Origin: Escherichia coli | GTDB taxonomy: Bacteria > Pseudomonadota > Gammaproteobacteria > Enterobacterales > Enterobacteriaceae | Assembly (NCBI RefSeq): GCF_003018255.1 | Contig: NZ_CP027440.1 | DNA length: 64,000 nt | Strand: one strand, 5' to 3' | Shown: one piece after another, positions 2,225-34,967 of the stretch | Layout of the letters: the number at the start of each line of letters is the position of its first letter | Numbering within the stretch: the stretch's first letter is position 1 | Program-made: the position numbers and the translations under genes | Notes under the pieces: generated by a model | What the model saw: the letters and a program-made list of their open reading frames with translations, nothing else | What the model was told of the DNA's origin: nothing | Database searches by the model: none

Positions 2225-2435
2225 GATTCTTCGCCTTTGGTTTGTTTTCCGCTCGTTATCAAAGCGTAAAATATAATGACCACCATTCGAATCTGTATGC
2301 AAACTAAATGTTTGTCAAATGTTAAATTGAGTTTGCAAAAATGAAAATCCACTGCTAGATTGAAAAAATATTGAACATAAAGGTCATTTAAAGCGCAGTA
2401 ATGGCGATAATTTAGTCCACTTTGTGAGATTGAGC
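2225..2435. promoter_or_regulatory. Divergent puuA/puuP - puuD control region; AT-rich, expected to carry PuuR operators and divergent promoters
   Basis: 210-bp AT-rich intergenic space between divergent puuA and puuD; PuuR regulation is established for K-12; individual operator sites not resolved by eye. Confidence 0.45.
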
Positions 2436-3200
2436 ATGGAAAATATAATGAACAATCCGGTTATCGGTGTCGTAATGTGCAGGAACAGGCTTAAGGGTCA
2501 TGCGACCCAGACTCTGCAAGAAAAGTACCTGAATGCCATCATCCACGCAGGCGGCTTGCCAATTGCGCTGCCACATGCGCTGGCGGAACCGTCATTACTT
2601 GAACAACTTTTGCCGAAACTCGATGGTATTTATCTTCCTGGTAGTCCCAGCAATGTGCAGCCGCACCTATATGGTGAAAACGGCGATGAGCCTGACGCCG
2701 ATCCCGGGCGTGATCTTCTGAGCATGGCGTTAATTAATGCCGCACTCGAAAGGCGCATCCCCATTTTCGCCATCTGCCGGGGTTTACAGGAACTGGTGGT
2801 GGCAACCGGTGGTTCGTTGCATCGCAAGCTGTGCGAACAGCCTGAATTGCTGGAACATCGGGAAGATCCCGAACTGCCGGTGGAGCAGCAATATGCGCCG
2901 TCGCATGAAGTTCTGGTTGAAGAGGGGGGATTACTGTCTGCGTTGTTACCTGAATGTAGCAACTTTTGGGTAAACTCTCTGCATGGACAAGGGGCGAAGG
3001 TCGTTAGCCCACGGTTGCGTGTTGAAGCTCGCTCGCCGGATGGCTTAGTTGAGGCGGTTAGCGTCATCAATCATCCTTTTGCGCTGGGCGTACAGTGGCA
3101 CCCGGAATGGAACAGTAGCGAGTACGCGCTTTCGCGTATATTGTTCGAGGGCTTTATCACCGCTTGTCAGCACCATATCGCTGAAAAACAGCGACTCTGA
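2436..3200 (+). CDS. puuD: Gamma-glutamyl-gamma-aminobutyrate hydrolase
   Basis: ORF 2424..3200; ATG at 2436 gives MENIMNNPVIGVVMCRNRL, the recalled PuuD N-terminus (254 aa); class I glutamine amidotransferase-like. Confidence 0.9.
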   Translation: MENIMNNPVIGVVMCRNRLKGHATQTLQEKYLNAIIHAGGLPIALPHALAEPSLLEQLLPKLDGIYLPGSPSNVQPHLYGENGDEPDADPGRDLLSMALINAALERRIPIFAICRGLQELVVATGGSLHRKLCEQPELLEHREDPELPVEQQYAPSHEVLVEEGGLLSALLPECSNFWVNSLHGQGAKVVSPRLRVEARSPDGLVEAVSVINHPFALGVQWHPEWNSSEYALSRILFEGFITACQHHIAEKQRL

Positions 3201-3226
3201 CCACTACAGTTTAAGGAAATGCAAAT

Positions 3227-3784
3227 ATGAGTGATGAGGGACTGGCGCCAGGAAAACGCTTGTCGGAAATCCGCCAGCAGCAGGGGCTTTCACAACGTCG
3301 TGCCGCCGAACTCTCCGGGCTGACTCACAGTGCTATCAGTACGATAGAACAAGATAAAGTCAGCCCTGCCATCAGTACGCTGCAAAAGCTGCTGAAGGTG
3401 TATGGTCTGTCACTCTCGGAATTCTTTTCCGAGCCGGAAAAACCTGATGAGCCGCAGGTCGTCATTAATCAGGACGACTTAATTGAGATGGGCAGTCAGG
3501 GTGTGTCAATGAAGCTGGTTCATAACGGTAACCCGAATCGCACGCTGGCGATGATCTTTGAAACGTACCAGCCGGGCACAACCACTGGGGAAAGAATTAA
3601 GCATCAGGGTGAGGAAATAGGCACTGTACTGGAAGGTGAAATTGTTCTGACGATTAATGGTCAGGATTATCATCTCGTCGCGGGGCAAAGTTATGCCATT
3701 AATACCGGCATCCCGCACAGTTTCAGTAATACGTCGGCAGGTATTTGCCGAATTATCAGCGCCCATACGCCCACCACGTTTTAA
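3227..3784 (+). CDS. puuR: HTH-type transcriptional repressor PuuR (XRE HTH + cupin)
   Basis: 185-aa ORF; HTH segment LSQRRAAELSGLTHSAISTIEQ; synteny inside the puu cluster. Confidence 0.9.
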   Translation: MSDEGLAPGKRLSEIRQQQGLSQRRAAELSGLTHSAISTIEQDKVSPAISTLQKLLKVYGLSLSEFFSEPEKPDEPQVVINQDDLIEMGSQGVSMKLVHNGNPNRTLAMIFETYQPGTTTGERIKHQGEEIGTVLEGEIVLTINGQDYHLVAGQSYAINTGIPHSFSNTSAGICRIISAHTPTTF

Positions 3785-3933
3785 TCTTTTTGTTCTGTAA
3801 GCCGGGTAAGCGCAATGTGCCCGGCAATCCATAAAGAATGTCGCCAGAAATAAACGGGCATGCGGCCCGGGGATCTCTGCGCCCTGACGTTCACAAACTG
3901 CATATATCTGATAGACGTGAAACAGGAGTCATA

Positions 3934-5421
3934 ATGAATTTTCATCATCTGGCTTACTGGCAGGATAAAGCGTTAAGTCTCGCCATTGAAACCCGCTTAT
4001 TTATTAACGGTGAATATACTGCTGCGGCGGAAAATGAAACTTTTGAAACCGTTGATCCGGTCACCCAGGCACCGCTGGCGAATATTGCCCGCGGCAAGAG
4101 CGTCGATATTGACCGTGCGGTGAGCGCAGCACGCGGCGTGTTTGAACGTGGCGACTGGTCACTCTCTTCTCCGGCTAAGCGTAAAGCGGTGCTGAATAAA
4201 CTCGCCGATTTAATGGAAGCTAACGCTGAAGAACTGGCGCTGCTGGAAACGCTCGACACCGGCAAACCGATTCGTCACAGCCTGCGTGATGATATTCCCG
4301 GCGCGGCGCGCGCCATTCGCTGGTACGCCGAGGCTATCGACAAAGTGTATGGCGAAGTGGCGACCACCAGTAGCCATGAGCTGGCGATGATCATGCGTGA
4401 ACCGGTCGGCGTGATTGCCGCCATCGTGCCGTGGAACTTCCCGCTGCTGCTGACTTGCTGGAAACTCGGCCCGGCGCTGGCGGCGGGAAACAGCGTGATC
4501 CTAAAACCGTCTGAAAAATCACCGCTCAGTGCGATTCGTCTCGCGGGGCTGGCGAAAGAAGCGGGGCTGCCGGATGGTGTGTTGAACGTGGTGACGGGTT
4601 TTGGTCATGAAGCCGGGCAGGCGCTTTCGCGCCATAACGATATCGATGCCATTGCCTTTACTGGCTCAACCCGCACCGGGAAACAGCTGCTGAAGGACGC
4701 GGGCGACAGCAACATGAAACGCGTCTGGCTGGAAGCGGGCGGCAAAAGCGCCAACATCGTTTTCGCCGACTGCCCGGATTTGCAACAGGCGGCAAGCGCC
4801 ACCGCCGCAGGCATTTTCTACAACCAGGGCCAGGTGTGCATCGCCGGAACGCGTTTGTTGCTAGAAGAGAGCATCGCCGATGAATTCTTAGCCCTGTTAA
4901 AACAGCAGGCGCAAAACTGGCAGCCGGGCCATCCACTTGATCCCGCAACCACCATGGGCACCTTAATCGACTGCGCCCACGCCGACTCGGTCCATAGCTT
5001 TATTCGGGAAGGCGAAAGCAAAGGGCAACTGCTGCTGGATGGCCGTAACGCCGAGCTGGCTGCCGCCATCGGCCCGACGATCTTTGTGGATGTAGACCCG
5101 AATGCGTCCTTAAGCCGCGAAGAGATTTTCGGTCCGGTGCTGGTGGTCACGCGTTTCACATCAGAAGAACAGGCGCTACAGCTTGCCAACGACAGCCAGT
5201 ACGGACTTGGCGCGGCGGTATGGACGCGCGACCTCTCCCGCGCGCACCGCATGAGTCGCCGCCTGAAAGCCGGCTCCGTCTTCGTCAATAACTACAACGA
5301 CGGCGATATGACCGTGCCGTTTGGCGGCTATAAGCAGAGCGGCAACGGGCGCGACAAATCCCTGCATGCCCTTGAAAAATTCACCGAACTGAAAACCATC
5401 TGGATAAGCCTGGAGGCCTGA
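3934..5421 (+). CDS. puuC: Gamma-glutamyl-gamma-aminobutyraldehyde dehydrogenase (aldehyde dehydrogenase family)
   Basis: ORF 3838..5421; start set at ATG 3934 (MNFHHLAYWQDKALSLAIETRLFINGEY), 495 aa; ALDH motifs, catalytic Cys in QGQVCIAG. Confidence 0.9.
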   Translation: MNFHHLAYWQDKALSLAIETRLFINGEYTAAAENETFETVDPVTQAPLANIARGKSVDIDRAVSAARGVFERGDWSLSSPAKRKAVLNKLADLMEANAEELALLETLDTGKPIRHSLRDDIPGAARAIRWYAEAIDKVYGEVATTSSHELAMIMREPVGVIAAIVPWNFPLLLTCWKLGPALAAGNSVILKPSEKSPLSAIRLAGLAKEAGLPDGVLNVVTGFGHEAGQALSRHNDIDAIAFTGSTRTGKQLLKDAGDSNMKRVWLEAGGKSANIVFADCPDLQQAASATAAGIFYNQGQVCIAGTRLLLEESIADEFLALLKQQAQNWQPGHPLDPATTMGTLIDCAHADSVHSFIREGESKGQLLLDGRNAELAAAIGPTIFVDVDPNASLSREEIFGPVLVVTRFTSEEQALQLANDSQYGLGAAVWTRDLSRAHRMSRRLKAGSVFVNNYNDGDMTVPFGGYKQSGNGRDKSLHALEKFTELKTIWISLEA

Positions 5422-5422
5422 A

Positions 5423-6703
5423 ATGACCGAACATACCAGCAGTTACTACGCCGCCAGTGCGAATAAATACGCGCCATTCGACACGCTGAATGAGTCGATT
5501 TCCTGCGACGTTTGCGTGGTCGGTGGCGGCTATACCGGGCTGTCTTCCGCGCTGCATCTGGCGGAAGCGGGCTTTGACGTGGTGGTTCTTGAAGCCTCAC
5601 GCATCGGCTTCGGCGCAAGCGGACGCAACGGCGGGCAGCTTGTGAACTCCTACAGCCGCGACATCGACGTCATTGAAAAAAGCTACGGCATGGACACCGC
5701 CCGTATGCTCGGCAGCATGATGTTCGAAGGCGGCGAGATCATCCGCGAACGTATCAAACGTTATCAGATTGACTGCGACTACCGCCCCGGCGGCCTGTTT
5801 GTGGCGATGAATGATAAACAGCTCGCGACTCTGGAAGAGCAGAAAGAGAACTGGGAACGCTACGGCAATAAACAGCTGGAGCTGCTGGACGCCAACGCTA
5901 TTCGCCGCGAGGTCGCCAGCGATCGCTACACTGGTGCGCTTCTGGATCACAGCGGTGGGCATATTCATCCGCTAAACCTCGCCATTGGCGAAGCGGACGC
6001 CATCCGCCTGAACGGAGGGCGCGTGTATGAGCTTTCTGCCGTGACGCAGATCCAGCACACCACGCCAGCCGTGGTGCGGACTGCCAATGGTCAGGTGACG
6101 GCGAAGTATGTGATTGTCGCCGGGAATGCGTATCTGGGCGATAAAGTAGAGCCGGAACTAGCGAAACGCAGCATGCCGTGCGGCACGCAGGTGATCACCA
6201 CCGAGCGGCTGTCGGAAGATTTAGCTCGTTCGCTGATCCCGAAAAACTACTGTGTGGAAGACTGTAACTATCTTCTTGATTACTACCGTCTTACCGCCGA
6301 TAACCGCCTGTTGTACGGCGGCGGCGTGGTCTACGGCGCACGCGACCCGGACGATGTTGAGCGCCTTGTGGTGCCGAAACTGCTGAAAACCTTCCCGCAA
6401 CTGAAGGGCGTGAAAATTGATTACCGCTGGACGGGCAACTTCCTGCTGACCCTGTCACGCATGCCGCAGTTTGGTCGCCTCGATACCAACATCTACTACA
6501 TACAGGGCTACAGCGGCCACGGCGTCACCTGTACCCACCTCGCCGGGCGTTTGATTGCTGAACTGCTGCGCGGTGACGCCGAGCGTTTCGACGCCTTCGC
6601 CAATCTGCCGCATTACCCGTTCCCCGGCGGGCGCACGCTGCGCGTTCCGTTTACCGCGATGGGCGCGGCTTATTACAGCCTGCGCGATCGTCTGGGCGTT
6701 TAA
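5423..6703 (+). CDS. puuB: Gamma-glutamylputrescine oxidoreductase (FAD-dependent)
   Basis: 426-aa ORF with N-terminal FAD-binding GxGxxG (VCVVGGGYTGLSSAL); starts 1 bp after the puuC stop. Confidence 0.9.
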   Translation: MTEHTSSYYAASANKYAPFDTLNESISCDVCVVGGGYTGLSSALHLAEAGFDVVVLEASRIGFGASGRNGGQLVNSYSRDIDVIEKSYGMDTARMLGSMMFEGGEIIRERIKRYQIDCDYRPGGLFVAMNDKQLATLEEQKENWERYGNKQLELLDANAIRREVASDRYTGALLDHSGGHIHPLNLAIGEADAIRLNGGRVYELSAVTQIQHTTPAVVRTANGQVTAKYVIVAGNAYLGDKVEPELAKRSMPCGTQVITTERLSEDLARSLIPKNYCVEDCNYLLDYYRLTADNRLLYGGGVVYGARDPDDVERLVVPKLLKTFPQLKGVKIDYRWTGNFLLTLSRMPQFGRLDTNIYYIQGYSGHGVTCTHLAGRLIAELLRGDAERFDAFANLPHYPFPGGRTLRVPFTAMGAAYYSLRDRLGV

Positions 6704-31000: not shown

Positions 31001-31026
<26 letters not shown>

Positions 31027-31729
31027 GATGCCAGCGCAGCAAGTTTGCCATCGCAAAGAGATATTTTTCGCTGGCTTCGTCGGAGGAGATGGGTGGAAAC
31101 TCTGCGGTGATGCAATGCAAGTTGAGATCTGCACACCAACTACCGAAAGAGCCAGGCGTTTCATAACCGACGCTGGTTACCAGAGGCAATTCAAACGCCT
31201 GGGCCAGCCATTCACCTAATTCGCTGTGTCTGGGATCTTCAATACAGGCCAGCGGATCGTGGAATGAGACCACCCAGGCAGGTTGAATGCGGTGTATAAG
31301 CTGGCACAGCGCCTGGGTTTCAGGTTCGGAGCCAGGTTTGTCACCTGTCAGCAATACGACATCACGTTCTTCAGCGGCGCTGTTCCAGCGATAAACGGTT
31401 TCACCTTCCTTCCAGTTCGCCGCCGGAAAGTTTCGGTTTAAATCCACACCATTAGCATTGGCCCGTAACCCTAACTGGCAGCCGTCAGGATTCACACACA
31501 GCACCACATGATGGCGGCGCAAAGACGGTGTCAAAGTCCGCAGAGCACAGGAGAGCGTGACGATCGAAGAGTTTTCATCACCGTGAGTGCCAGCCAGAAT
31601 CAAACCACTTTCGTGACTGGCTGCAGGGGCCGGAAACCAGATTAACGGCGCGCCCAATAATGAACGTCCGTAATGTTCTGTACCGGGCGGAAATGCGCCG
31701 CGTTCGGCGCGTGGGCGAGTTACGGTCAT
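31001..31729 (-). CDS. mpaA: Murein peptide amidase A (gamma-D-Glu-meso-Dap amidase, M14 peptidase family)
   Basis: ORF 31001..31789(-); start at MTVTRPRAERGAFPPGTEHYG (ATG rc 31727-31729), 242 aa; 3' end overlaps the convergent ycjG 3' end. Confidence 0.88.
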
Positions 31730-31824
31730 GATCGTCTCTGGTTCAGGAAGTATTACAGGCAGTGTTGTGCAAATTTTGCGGATTATCAAATCCTTTTCTT
31801 CAACGCTATGTTATCGATCTTGTA

Positions 31825-31856
31825 TCACTTTTTTGCCGGAAGTTGTTTGCATTTTC
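31825..31856. promoter_or_regulatory. Conserved 32-bp element, copy 1 (tcacttttttgccggaagttgtttgcattttc), upstream of mpaA
   Basis: Near-identical (28/30) to a second copy at 34936-34967 upstream of mppA; contains a TTGCAT hexamer; function inferred only. Confidence 0.4.
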
Positions 31857-32019
31857 ATTGATGTGCAGATATTAGAATTGTCGTAATGTTATATACATGG
31901 CGTATTTTATTCTTACTGGTTCTACACATGTTAATCGCATCTGATTGATCAGTTCACCTTAATAAGTTTAATAAATCGTACTGCACATAGTACAGTACGA
32001 TGGTAGCTATATAATTGAT

Positions 32020-32658
32020 TTACATGAAGAATGGCTTATCGCCATCAGTCCCGGGTTGATTGATTCCTATATTCTCACCAATGTGTTTCTCAGGTTTATC
32101 GATGATATCTGTAATTAATGCTGCGACACTCTTACGTGATACGATCGTACCTTTGAATGGTTCATTGCGTGAGGTAAGCTCATAATCAATAATATCTTCA
32201 TCAGTCAGCCAGGCAGGGCGAAGAATTGTATATTCCAGTCCAGAAGCCTCAATTGCATCTGCAGCCCTGCGGAATGGTTTTAGGGGTTCACCAATAACTG
32301 CATTATTCCATTCGCCAAATTTTCCTGGAACTTCATCATAAATACCGAGGGAAAGAACAAAGATCAGACGTTTAACATCACCGACTTTCATCGCAGCGAT
32401 CACTGAATTTGCCTGAATATCTAAATCTTCCCCCGTAAGGTTGGCATACACAACATCCTGTCCCTGCATGGCCTGCTTCAGTGCTGCATGATTCAGTACA
32501 TCCCCCATAATAATCTTGCTATTAGTGGGATAGGGTTTGTGGATTTTTGCTGGCTGACGGGCAAATAAAGTTTGTTTAATGGTTTGTTTATCTGCCAGTT
32601 GATTAATCACATGGCGGGCTATCTGACCGCCAGCACCAAGAATCAGTACATTTTTCAT
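32020..32658 (-). CDS. ymjC: NAD(P)-binding NmrA/SDR-like protein, full length
   Basis: 212-aa ORF with N-terminal Rossmann motif ILGAGGQIARHV; position of the K-12 ymjC locus. Confidence 0.7.
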   Translation of the reverse strand: MKNVLILGAGGQIARHVINQLADKQTIKQTLFARQPAKIHKPYPTNSKIIMGDVLNHAALKQAMQGQDVVYANLTGEDLDIQANSVIAAMKVGDVKRLIFVLSLGIYDEVPGKFGEWNNAVIGEPLKPFRRAADAIEASGLEYTILRPAWLTDEDIIDYELTSRNEPFKGTIVSRKSVAALITDIIDKPEKHIGENIGINQPGTDGDKPFFM

Positions 32659-32729
32659 GAAACTTTTCCCAGATTATTGGCAGCAATATGCCAGGCCATA
32701 TCACTATTACGGATTTGAATATGTTTCAT
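32655..32729 (-). CDS. Small 24-aa ORF (MKHIQIRNSDMAWHIAANNLGKVS), translationally coupled between ycjY and ymjC
   Basis: Its ATG overlaps the ycjY stop (TAATG) and its TGA overlaps the ymjC ATG (ATGA); corresponds positionally to K-12 ymjD, but the name is from memory only. Confidence 0.4.
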   Translation of the reverse strand: MKHIQIRNSDMAWHIAANNLGKVS

Positions 32730-33661
32730 TACAGAGTTTCCTCAAAGAACGGAGCTAATACTGAAATTGCTTCAGCCACATAGACTTTGCCGTCATAAAG
32801 ATCCATATGGTTTGCGCCTTCAACAATGTGATAGCGTTTATCCTGGCTTGATGCTCGATCGTACAGGTCGTCACTCATCCATTTGCTCCCTGCCTGGCTG
32901 CCCGCCACAATCTGTATCGGCTGAGTCAGGTACACTTCCGCCATATGGTAAGCATCATAGGTAATAATCTGGTTAAGGCTGCGCAAAGTAGCGTAACCCG
33001 GTGCTGTTGGATACTGCGCGCGAGGGGTATGGTAATACTCCCAGGCCTGACGCAGTTCTTCGTTCGGCGCATCGGACTCCTTCATTGGTGCCAGTGGCAT
33101 AGTGGCGTATTCTCTGCTGCTAATATCGCTGGTTCGGGCGTTTGAACCCGCGTCAACGTATGGTAGGGCATCTATAGATTTCACATTGTTTTCCCAACCA
33201 TTACGGAACATCGAACCAATATTGACCGCACTAACAGTACCGATGGCCTTGATGCGGCGATCCTGAATTGCAGCATTGGCTGTATATCCTGCACCGGCAC
33301 AAATTCCCATCGCACCAATTCGGCTATTGTCGACATAAGAAAGCGTTGTCAGGTAATCAATCACGGCACTGACGTCTTCAGTACGAATGTATGGGTTTTC
33401 TAACTGACGCGGCTCGCCGCCGCTTTCACCTTGATAAGATGCGTCATAAGCAATAGTGACAAATCCCTTTTCCGCCAGTTTTTCGGCATAGGTTCCAGCC
33501 GTTTGCTCTTTAACGCCCCCACCTGGGTGAGATACCACAATTGCCGGATACTGACGGGTTTCATCAAATTTTGGAGGGAAATAGATCACTGCAGACAAAG
33601 AGATGGTTGGATTATTGCTGTTAGTGAAGCTGACTTTATTATTCATCATTCCGTTCCTCAT
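32729..33661 (-). CDS. ycjY: Alpha/beta hydrolase (S9/dienelactone-hydrolase-like)
   Basis: 310-aa ORF with nucleophile-elbow-like GICAGAG; synteny; true start may lie a few codons inside. Confidence 0.8.
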   Translation of the reverse strand: MRNGMMNNKVSFTNSNNPTISLSAVIYFPPKFDETRQYPAIVVSHPGGGVKEQTAGTYAEKLAEKGFVTIAYDASYQGESGGEPRQLENPYIRTEDVSAVIDYLTTLSYVDNSRIGAMGICAGAGYTANAAIQDRRIKAIGTVSAVNIGSMFRNGWENNVKSIDALPYVDAGSNARTSDISSREYATMPLAPMKESDAPNEELRQAWEYYHTPRAQYPTAPGYATLRSLNQIITYDAYHMAEVYLTQPIQIVAGSQAGSKWMSDDLYDRASSQDKRYHIVEGANHMDLYDGKVYVAEAISVLAPFFEETL

Positions 33662-33786
33662 GGAGTTGTCGGTTCGTTTTGACGGTTGGTGATATCACTA
33701 TAGATATTGATCATTAAGTTGATTAGACCCAAAATCATGATTAGACCTATCATTTAAATGATTAATAGATTGTATGGAGATACTGA

Positions 33787-34686
33787 ATGAAGCGTGAAGA
33801 AATCGCTGATCTGATGGCGTTTGTCGTCGTTGCAGAGGAGCGTAGCTTCACTCGCGCAGCAGCCCGCCTGAGCATGGCGCAGTCAGCTTTAAGCCAGATA
33901 GTGCGCCGTATAGAAGAACGATTGGGATTGCGGCTTCTGACACGAACCACGCGCAGCGTTGTACCCACTGAAGCGGGCGAGCATCTTTTGTCTGTTCTTG
34001 GCCCTATGTTGCATGACATAGATTCTGCCCTGACATCCCTGAGCGATCTGCAGAACCGCCCATCCGGGACAATACGTATTACTACTGTAGAACATGCAGC
34101 AAAAACGATATTGTTACCAGCTATGCGCACATTCCTGAAATCGCATCCTGAAATTGATATCCAGCTTACCATTGATTATGGTTTGACCGATGTCGTTTCT
34201 GAACGTTTTGATGCAGGCGTCCGTCTGGGTGGGGAGATGGATAAAGATATGATCGCCATTCGAATCGGGCCAGATATACCAATGGCTATTGTTGGCTCAC
34301 CGGATTATTTTTCTCGTCGAAGTGCTCCAACCTCAGTGTCACAATTAATAGATCATCAGGCAATTAATTTGTATCTTCCCACATCGGGTACAGCAAATCG
34401 CTGGAGATTAATACGCGGTGGACGTGAAGTTCGTGTTCGCATGGAAGGTCAGCTTTTACTGAATACGATAGACCTGATCATTGATGCTGCAATTGATGGG
34501 CATGGATTGGCGTATCTACCTTATGATCAGGTTGAGCGGGCTATTAAAGAAAAAAAACTGATACGTGTTTTGGATAAATTCACACCAGATTTACCCGGTT
34601 ATCACCTGTACTATCCACACCGTCGACATGCTGGCTCGGCATTCTCATTATTTATAGATAGGCTGAAGTATAAAGGTGCTGTTTAG
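33787..34686 (+). CDS. pgrR: LysR-family transcriptional regulator PgrR (YcjZ), regulator of murein peptide degradation
   Basis: 299-aa ORF with N-terminal LysR HTH (FTRAAARLSMAQSALSQIVRRIEERLG). Confidence 0.85.
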   Translation: MKREEIADLMAFVVVAEERSFTRAAARLSMAQSALSQIVRRIEERLGLRLLTRTTRSVVPTEAGEHLLSVLGPMLHDIDSALTSLSDLQNRPSGTIRITTVEHAAKTILLPAMRTFLKSHPEIDIQLTIDYGLTDVVSERFDAGVRLGGEMDKDMIAIRIGPDIPMAIVGSPDYFSRRSAPTSVSQLIDHQAINLYLPTSGTANRWRLIRGGREVRVRMEGQLLLNTIDLIIDAAIDGHGLAYLPYDQVERAIKEKKLIRVLDKFTPDLPGYHLYYPHRRHAGSAFSLFIDRLKYKGAV

Positions 34687-34935
34687 CACTACTTGCTGAT
34701 ACATTAATTTAATTCTTCTCTTAACGTATTCTCAGTTCCTTTCAACGTTTTGGTTATTTTTTATTCTTCGTACAATGGCGACAGATGCTGATTATGATAC
34801 CGAAAACGGGTTTGAACGTGCGAAGCCCGAACGTAGTGTTCGGAGTTCTATGTGCTTTACCGCATTTTGGAGACTATTATTTACACTAAATCTGATTTGA
34901 TATATTGATACTTAAAACATTTGATGCTTCCTTTG

Positions 34936-34967
34936 TCACTTTTTTGATGGAAGTTGTTTGCATTTCT
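34936..34967. promoter_or_regulatory. Conserved 32-bp element, copy 2 (tcacttttttgatggaagttgtttgcatttct), upstream of mppA
   Basis: Paralogous to 31825-31856; lies about 55 bp upstream of the mppA ATG. Confidence 0.4.

Follow-up and report, generated by a model that had tools for sequence, protein, structure and literature searches.

Gene content of the locus

The window, a 64,000-nucleotide stretch of the Escherichia coli contig NZ_CP027440.1, includes the E. coli region tpx-ycjG-mpaA ... pgrR-mppA. Upstream of mpaA, the minus strand carries ymjC, an open reading frame (ORF) of 24 codons and ycjY, from which pgrR diverges. The features considered here are listed with their window coordinates, strand and the evidence on which each was assigned.

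31001-31729, minus strand: mpaA, outside the cassette described below (ORF, Pfam, RefSeq)
31825-31854, no strand: left copy of a 30-bp direct repeat, TCACTTTTTTGCCGGAAGTTGTTTGCATTT, after which the cassette DNA starts (alignment with the empty site of WW2)
31975-32001, minus strand: terminator-like hairpin (RNA fold)
32020-32658, minus strand: ymjC, intact, 212 aa, last gene of the cassette (Pfam PF13460, PDB 3QVO, RefSeq)
32655-32658, minus strand: ATGA overlap, where 12 nt were lost between two copies of ATGA (IAI1 alignment)
32655-32729, minus strand: 24-codon ORF, MKHIQIRNSDMAWHIAANNLGKVS, identified by alignment as the local allele of K-12 ymjD and a scar of the hydrolase gene hyd2
32664-32666, minus strand: AAA codon, once the stop codon TAA of hyd2/ymjD (TAA in IAI1 and K-12)
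32674-32675, minus strand: junction of the 867-bp (289-codon) in-frame hyd2 deletion (IAI1 alignment)
32729-33649, minus strand: ycjY (ORF list, Pfam hits, RefSeq annotation of the same gene)
33787-34686, plus strand: pgrR (ycjZ), LysR-type regulator gene, divergent from ycjY and a member of the cassette (ORF, RefSeq name, LysR family hits)
34936-34965, no strand: right copy of the 30-bp repeat, TCACTTTTTTGATGGAAGTTGTTTGCATTT, matching the left one at 28 of 30 positions (WW2 alignment)

The ycjY frame is open from 32729 to 33661; the RefSeq start at 33649 gives a protein of 306 aa and the in-frame ATG at 33661 one of 310 aa. The former is favoured by its anti-Shine-Dalgarno duplex (-6.9 vs +0.1 kcal/mol). 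The ATG of the small ORF has one base in common with the ycjY stop codon (TAATG at 32729), and its own stop codon, TGA, overlaps the ATG of ymjC (ATGA at 32655-32658). Both overlaps had been named in the preliminary description, and both are present in the sequence. The mpaA gene follows 290 nt downstream of ymjC and retains its own ancestral 125-bp upstream region (31730-31854).

The YmjC protein

YmjC matches the Pfam family PF13460 (NAD_binding_10) over the complete profile (positions 1-184 of 184, E = 1.9e-53, 181.5 bits against a cut-off of 27.2), and a glycine-rich dinucleotide-binding motif, GAGGQIA, occupies residues 8-14. The 'NmrA family protein' of PDB entry 3QVO (chain 3QVO_A) matches YmjC residues 1-212 with only a handful of substitutions (E = 5.7e-136). 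The full profile match and the near-identical structure bear out the earlier claim that ymjC encodes a complete 212-aa Rossmann-fold protein here; since that structure has been deposited, the fold of YmjC, judged from the entry and the alignment, is already solved. The entry, whose source we take to be Shigella flexneri, comes from structural genomics, and its name assigns no function, ligand or substrate; the chain bears an N-terminal extension or tag, so that chain residues 23-234 align to the YmjC of the window. The YxxxK motif of the classical SDR active site is absent from all 212 residues, and YmjC is therefore better placed in the atypical class, which it fits, than among the classical SDRs. 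The RefSeq name 'SDR family oxidoreductase', under which the exact 212-aa sequence is found in public databases, should accordingly be taken in a broad sense. YmjC is an NAD(P)H-binding atypical SDR, or NmrA-like reductase. A pan-genome study already treats ymjC ('putative oxidoreductase') as a variable gene (PMC9602453).

Origin of the 24-codon ORF

In IAI1 and many other strains, a second alpha/beta-hydrolase gene of 310 codons (protein WP_000680602.1) is located between ycjY and the SDR gene. This middle gene of the IAI1 type is called hyd2 here, a name coined in the present analysis. Its ATG overlaps the ycjY stop codon through an identical TAATG. Pairwise alignment showed that the window lacks two pieces of the IAI1 sequence, an in-frame block of 867 bp (289 codons) and, separately, 12 nt, and that window and IAI1 are otherwise collinear. 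The block corresponds to IAI1 positions 1027-1893: the window through 32675 equals IAI1 up to 1026, and from 32674 onward it equals IAI1 from 1894. The small ORF opens with the initial 55 nt of hyd2, which are followed directly by the 11 nt that close hyd2 (...HLG*). In terms of codons, the hyd2 5' end supplies 1-18 and the first base of 19; the other two bases of codon 19, together with 20-21 (LG), come from its 3' end, and the final three codons, 22-24 (KVS), arise by reading on into what used to be intergenic DNA. At the protein level, the scar peptide MKHIQIRNSDMAWHIAAN plus LG corresponds to the joined N- and C-termini of hyd2.

Two smaller changes complete the present form of the ORF. 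A T-to-A substitution at 32666 converted the stop codon TAA of IAI1 and K-12 into AAA, and the frame thereby gains three codons and reaches the TGA overlapping the ymjC start codon. Between two copies of ATGA, 12 nt were lost (IAI1 ATGAGAAATATTATGAAAAAT to window ATGAAAAAT), and with them codons 1-4 (MRNI) of ymjC, whose ancestral product was 216 aa long; this length is found in the Pseudocitrobacter SDR, and E. coli versions of 216 aa also exist. The overlap at the 5' end of the small ORF was hence inherited from hyd2, and the one at the 3' end arose from the 12-nt deletion together with the stop loss.

An outgroup settles which form is older. The Pseudocitrobacter L005 contig has the order ycjY-TAATG-hyd2 (310 aa, 3550-4482)-SDR (216 aa), and the N-terminal peptide of its hyd2, MKDVQIQNADMAWHIAA, is homologous to the start of the small ORF. 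Because this outgroup has a 310-aa hyd2 with the same overlap, the long form is ancestral. In nine further genera, hyd2 likewise lies between ycjY and the SDR gene. Outside E. coli, the sequence homologous to the small ORF is the N-terminus of a 310-aa protein, and no homologue of the small ORF as an independent gene was found in the cassette loci of other genera. Neither the 24-aa peptide nor the 21-aa product of K-12 ymjD matched a model in Pfam or NCBIfam, and the exact 24-aa peptide is labelled 'hypothetical protein' on at least 1000 contigs. Given that 6 kb of this sequence contain 102 ORFs of at least 20 aa, a length of 24 codons is by itself not beyond chance; it is the history as a gene remnant, rather than the length, that makes the ORF non-random. 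Read in this way, the small ORF is the deletion remnant of a gene for a 310-residue hydrolase and an allele of the already named ymjD. The earlier proposal that it is an additional gene completing an operon is not upheld.

A widespread cassette inserted between mpaA and mppA

The cassette was traced in one genome per species, which gave 80 loci encoding YmjC relatives, and the proteins of the E. coli neighbours were compared with these loci by tblastn. A LysR gene resembling pgrR, divergent from ycjY-hyd2-SDR, was found at 10 loci of other genera, distributed over Pseudocitrobacter, Afipia, Mesorhizobium, Hyphomicrobium, Stenotrophomonas, Paraburkholderia, Caballeronia and Achromobacter. Several Bacteroidota have ycjY-hyd2-SDR or hyd2-SDR, other Alphaproteobacteria have a LysR gene divergent from genes in the order SDR-hyd2, and overall hyd2 adjoins the SDR gene in about 26 of the 80 loci. 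No match to mpaA or ycjG was detected by tblastn in any of the 80. In the Paraburkholderia cassette, another gene directly follows the SDR gene.

In some Alphaproteobacteria, YcjY is 82-85% identical to that of the window. A recent horizontal transfer from this class, at which these values might hint, was considered and rejected, as the G+C content there is host-like (0.61-0.63) and the nucleotide identity is 65-75%. The host-like G+C content of the cassettes in other genera points instead to an old and widespread module. In E. coli, the cassette has a G+C content of 0.46, compared with about 0.53 in the flanks.

Without the cassette, mpaA and mppA are adjacent and divergent, separated by spacers of 182 bp in WW2, 189 bp in Salmonella and 182 bp in Enterobacter cloacae, all of which align collinearly. 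When the empty site of WW2 is aligned with the window, the match stops at 31854 and resumes at 34936, the two segments overlapping by 30 nt. The window cassette accordingly spans 31855-34935 and is bounded by an imperfect 30-bp direct repeat, the sequence of which is single-copy in the empty site, Salmonella and E. cloacae. The 125 bp upstream of mpaA therefore predate the insertion and have stayed with the gene; they contain blocks that are conserved in Salmonella and Enterobacter. Empty sites are the minority state in E. coli: 144 genomes fall in the band of at least 99% identity, from which alone they were counted, and at least 25 match at 100% identity and coverage. Coverage alone would be misleading for such a count, since the right repeat of IAI1-type genomes aligns over 84% of the 79-nt probe.

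On these alignments, the unit in question is a four-gene cassette, pgrR divergent from ycjY-hyd2-ymjC, that is inserted in the mpaA/mppA spacer in Escherichia. YcjY has a G-x-C-x-G nucleophile elbow (GICAG) and Pfam hits to alpha/beta-hydrolase, DLH and Peptidase_S15 families. Such elbows occur in both YcjY and Hyd2, and both weakly resemble dienelactone hydrolase and UilS-type lactonases, with scores far under the family cut-offs. By these motifs, the cassette encodes two Cys-type alpha/beta hydrolases in addition to the NAD(P)H-binding NmrA-like reductase, and it looks like a small module for ester or lactone hydrolysis plus reduction. Because it is conserved away from murein-peptide genes, its primary role is probably not peptidoglycan recycling.

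The K-12 allele and allele frequencies in E. coli

In MG1655, ymjD (b4673, 21 aa) and ymjC (b4525, 60 aa) lie between ycjY and mpaA. Residues 1-46 of the K-12 YmjC equal those of the window, and the remainder is read from a foreign frame and spacer DNA. The underlying 665-bp deletion corresponds to window positions 31855-32519 and comprises all cassette DNA past ymjC codon 46, hairpin included. Alignment with K-12 thus contradicts the possibility, raised in the preliminary description, that its ymjC is equally intact: the K-12 copy is truncated. The further statement that K-12 carries a fragment or pseudogene holds for the fragment (60 aa, of which the first 46 match); a pseudogene flag is absent from the copy of NC_000913.3 used here, where both ymjC and ymjD are annotated as CDS. 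For ymjD, EcoGene presumably used the term 'expressed deletion pseudogene fusion remnant'.

Of 5426 complete E. coli genomes, 5417 matched a 2-kb probe (31700-33700). Among these, 2901 contain 80% or more of the probe, most of the others showing the K-12-type coverage of 67%, and intact ymjC is therefore the slight majority state (about 53% of complete E. coli genomes). This frequency, together with the near-identical PDB protein, removes the distinction that had been attached to an intact ymjC. Codons 47-212 of ymjC and the cassette DNA downstream are lost in K-12 and in about 42% of complete genomes. The alleles around the junction were distributed among complete genomes as follows.

Full hyd2 allele: 1272 of 5426 genomes
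Window-type junction (AAA, scar ORF abutting intact SDR gene): 1520 genomes
K-12-type junction (TAA, TTTTC): 2288 genomes; truncated gene in all sampled rows
TAA with GTTTC junction (truncated gene): 7 genomes

Every hyd2-deleted genome found with an intact ymjC carries the AAA stop loss (1520), and every sampled junction that keeps TAA precedes a truncated SDR gene. Strains 536, CFT073 and UTI89 carry the window-type allele and are 99% identical to the window in this region. A reciprocal loss, with ycjY dead where hyd2 is alive, was also considered and dropped, as the internal ycjY stop codon of IAI1 is confined to that one genome.

Signals for transcription and translation

The hairpin at 31975-32001 begins 19 nt after the ymjC stop codon; its 12-bp stem closes a loop of 3 nt, and a tail rich in U and A, UUAUUAAACUUAUU, follows. 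The RNA of 31955-32025 folds at -17.1 kcal/mol (z = -2.85; 1 of 200 shuffles as good), and a comparable hairpin follows the SDR gene in Pseudocitrobacter L005. Folding the 90 nt after the SDR stop codon at 11 loci with more distant cassettes revealed nothing consistent. A consensus terminator scan did not report the hairpin after ymjC, and a simple promoter scan of the mpaA upstream region gave no minus-strand match. An Rfam search of the spacer and the surroundings of the small ORF returned no known RNA element, the sole match being sub-threshold and inside pgrR. With a poor U-tract and a silent terminator scan, read-through into mpaA may be substantial.

Predicted Shine-Dalgarno duplexes amount to -6.9 kcal/mol for ycjY, -6.2 for the scar ORF, which retains the hyd2 ribosome-binding site GAGGA, and -4.2 for ymjC, whose own site is GGGA. 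No significant attenuator-like or ribosome-binding-site-occluding structure was predicted at the ymjC start (z = -1.06). No ribosome-profiling or proteomic record for ymjD was found in the accessible literature, and ymjD is not mentioned in a small-protein ribosome-profiling preprint.

Interpretation of the locus

Taken together, the locus is very probably a partly decayed copy of the cassette, in which the small ORF is the scar of hyd2; its coupling to ymjC would be incidental, and transcripts would end in part after ymjC. The 867-bp in-frame deletion took out hyd2 and left a 66-nt scar, the ymjD of K-12; the deletion between ATGA repeats shortened ymjC by four codons, and the change of TAA to AAA then lengthened the scar as far as the ymjC start codon. 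PgrR would control the divergent ycjY promoter. Ribosomes that end at the ycjY UAA probably restart at the overlapping AUG of the scar, translate its 24 codons and then terminate on the ymjC AUG, which plausibly helps YmjC initiation given the weaker Shine-Dalgarno sequence of ymjC itself; the dependence of ymjC on such coupling may be small, as no occluding RNA structure was predicted. We read the coupling of the scar to ymjC as a by-product of the deletion and not as a designed small gene. Transcripts from the PgrR-controlled promoter most likely end, at least in part, at the hairpin after ymjC, and mpaA would then depend mostly on its own ancestral promoter region.

The opposite polarity, in which the small ORF came first and an insertion into it gave rise to the 310-aa gene of the IAI1 type, can in practice be set aside. 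Its sole support is that an indel separates the two forms, and it is already refuted by the long form being a complete alpha/beta hydrolase with homologues of 55-85% identity at the same position in many genera and by the Pseudocitrobacter outgroup with its identical TAATG; that an in-frame insertion should yield a full enzyme is not credible. Another reading invokes selection on the ORF once hyd2 was lost. The 24 codons might then be a selected small gene or leader that couples ymjC to ycjY, the scar having been exapted and its stop loss selected, as could be argued from the presence of both overlaps, from a ymjC Shine-Dalgarno sequence weaker than those of its neighbours, and from the distribution of AAA in all 1520 hyd2-deleted genomes with an intact SDR gene and of TAA, where sampled, only before truncated ones. 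Two single mutations in two lineages would explain this distribution equally well, and absent a phylogeny the association has no statistical weight for that reason. The ancestral hyd2 stop codon already lay 5 nt before the SDR start, so that coupling was close from the outset and is loosened only a little in the TAA form. Since the ORF also has neither an independent-gene homologue among the cassette loci of other genera nor a family model, and the ymjC start is not sequestered by structure, we consider selection for coupling improbable.

Whether mpaA belongs to the same transcription unit bears on the operon of ycjY, small ORF, ymjC and mpaA that had been proposed. In K-12, the Ishihama group described 'ycjY-ymjDC' with a constitutive promoter facing pgrR (PMC3946193), and ycjY-ymjDC-mpaA is listed in the K-12 literature as one PgrR-regulated unit. 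To this extent the proposal agrees with the record. A single obligatory operon, with mpaA dependent on the ycjY promoter and PgrR, would also suit the common strand of all four genes and a spacer in which consensus scans reported neither terminator nor promoter. The K-12 data come from an allele whose 665-bp deletion took out the hairpin, whereas the 290-nt spacer of the window contains it with its 12-bp stem; the 125 bp upstream of mpaA are the same as in cassette-free genomes, with blocks conserved in Salmonella and Enterobacter, and none of the cassettes traced in other genera is followed by mpaA. The membership of mpaA is doubtful here in view of the hairpin and the ancestral upstream region, and an obligatory four-gene operon is rather unlikely. 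A linked account, in which the stop loss was selected and the scar exapted to keep ymjC expressed, and in which the textbook PgrR-mpaA link of K-12, with PgrR as the 'peptidoglycan recycling regulator', is a side effect of the 665-bp deletion, we regard as unlikely. If the deletion did have this side effect, the loss of the cassette terminator in K-12 joined the resident mpaA to a hydrolase/reductase cassette of horizontal origin, and PgrR would not control mpaA in strains with the window-type allele. The reading preferred here remains that of a decaying cassette with an incidental scar ORF.

What was known before includes the intact ymjC, its structure, the name ymjD, the truncated state of K-12 and the K-12 operon listing; the anatomy of the scar, the allele frequencies, the cassette with its insertion site and a possible deletion origin of the K-12 PgrR-mpaA link are added here. 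That ymjC is intact is, as such, of little consequence, being the majority state of an ordinary locus with a solved structure. Of wider interest is a broadly conserved cassette that was inserted beside murein-peptide genes and is now eroding in E. coli, a view that recasts the possible roles of YcjY, YmjC and PgrR. Because the K-12 allele is the most decayed, the names ymjD and ymjC, the 'ycjY-ymjDC-mpaA operon' and the role given to PgrR all rest on a deletion derivative.

Comparison with related loci and known systems

The full cassette of the IAI1 type consists of ycjY, the gene for WP_000680602.1 and the gene for the SDR WP_000800177.1, with a divergent LysR gene; the window differs in lacking the middle enzyme, Hyd2. 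The Pseudocitrobacter cassette contains orthologues of the window ycjY, pgrR and ymjC at 93%, 87% and 83% identity, respectively, and cassettes outside Escherichia are adjacent to neither mpaA nor mppA. The K-12 ymjD/ymjC pair occupies the same locus as the window genes and has the same 867-bp and 12-nt deletions and the same TAATG. The first 21 codons of K-12 ymjD are collinear with the window ORF, K-12 differing by A12D. In K-12, ymjD still ends at the hyd2 stop codon TAA (21 aa), a stop missing from the window ORF, which extends to 24 aa and adjoins ymjC; conversely, the K-12 ymjC is a 60-aa stump after the 665-bp deletion, and the window ymjC is whole. Overlapping stop and start codons such as ATGA and TAATG are the classical arrangement for translational coupling in bacterial operons. 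Both ends of the small ORF show this overlap, but the upstream 'gene' in the present case is a 24-codon pseudogene remnant, on which ymjC translation may or may not depend.

Cassette boundaries and flanking sequences

The entire pgrR-ycjY-ymjC cassette, in which the LysR regulator gene pgrR is divergent from ycjY, the deletion scar of hyd2 (a second alpha/beta-hydrolase gene) and ymjC, is bracketed in the mpaA/mppA spacer by an imperfect direct repeat:

31825-31854 and 34936-34965, 30-bp direct repeat, 28/30 identical

Cassette-free genomes (E. coli WW2 and others, Salmonella and E. cloacae) have a single copy of this repeat in an mpaA/mppA spacer of 182-189 bp. The repeat pair looks like a target duplication or an att-like site; despite this appearance, no recombinase is carried by the cassette. 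Near its right edge, RefSeq annotation of strain IAI1 places a gene remnant between pgrR and the right repeat:

IAI1 locus 5464-5538 (corresponding approximately to window 34783-34857), short internal fragment of the epoxyqueuosine reductase QueH gene

Donor DNA that entered together with the cassette may have left this fragment behind. On the opposite side, the retained mpaA upstream region (window 31730-31854) includes the blocks CAGTGTTGTGCAAA and GATTATCAAAT, whose conservation extends to Salmonella and E. cloacae and which may belong to the native promoter or operator of mpaA.

Deletion and mobile-element erosion

One end of the 665-bp K-12-type deletion (window 31855-32519) lies, within 1 nt, at the first cassette base beside the left 30-bp repeat, the exact place where homology to the empty-site allele runs out. 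This coincidence with the cassette edge may point to an edge prone to recombination. The locus is eroded further by mobile elements: ymjC is split by the IS4-like ISVsa5 (2288-3496 of the compared locus) in MSHS 133, the strain whose genome is most identical to the window, the whole cassette is replaced by IS1 in strain NH-21 (5180-5877 of its locus), and IS1 or IS2 is located within or next to hyd2 in other genomes.

Coding content of the cassette

In IAI1, ycjY (3409-4329 of the IAI1 locus) is interrupted by an internal stop at codon 48 (GAG to TAA), a lesion found in this strain only among 5426 genomes. The ycjY ORF of the window reaches upstream to an ATG at 33661, and the predicted SD duplex supports the RefSeq position, 33649, as the probable start in preference to it. 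A tetracycline ribosome-profiling study reports a mapped ycjY start that agrees with neither of two K-12 annotations, those of 2006 and 2014 (PMC4909307).

Cassettes of Paraburkholderia contain an additional ORF beyond the gene for the short-chain-type NAD(P)H-binding protein (SDR):

Paraburkholderia loci L009 and L016, 5140-6303, 388-aa ORF beginning 1 nt past the SDR stop

Its N-terminus presumably resembles Old-Yellow-Enzyme-type flavin oxidoreductases, and some cassettes may therefore hold a fourth, reductive enzyme.
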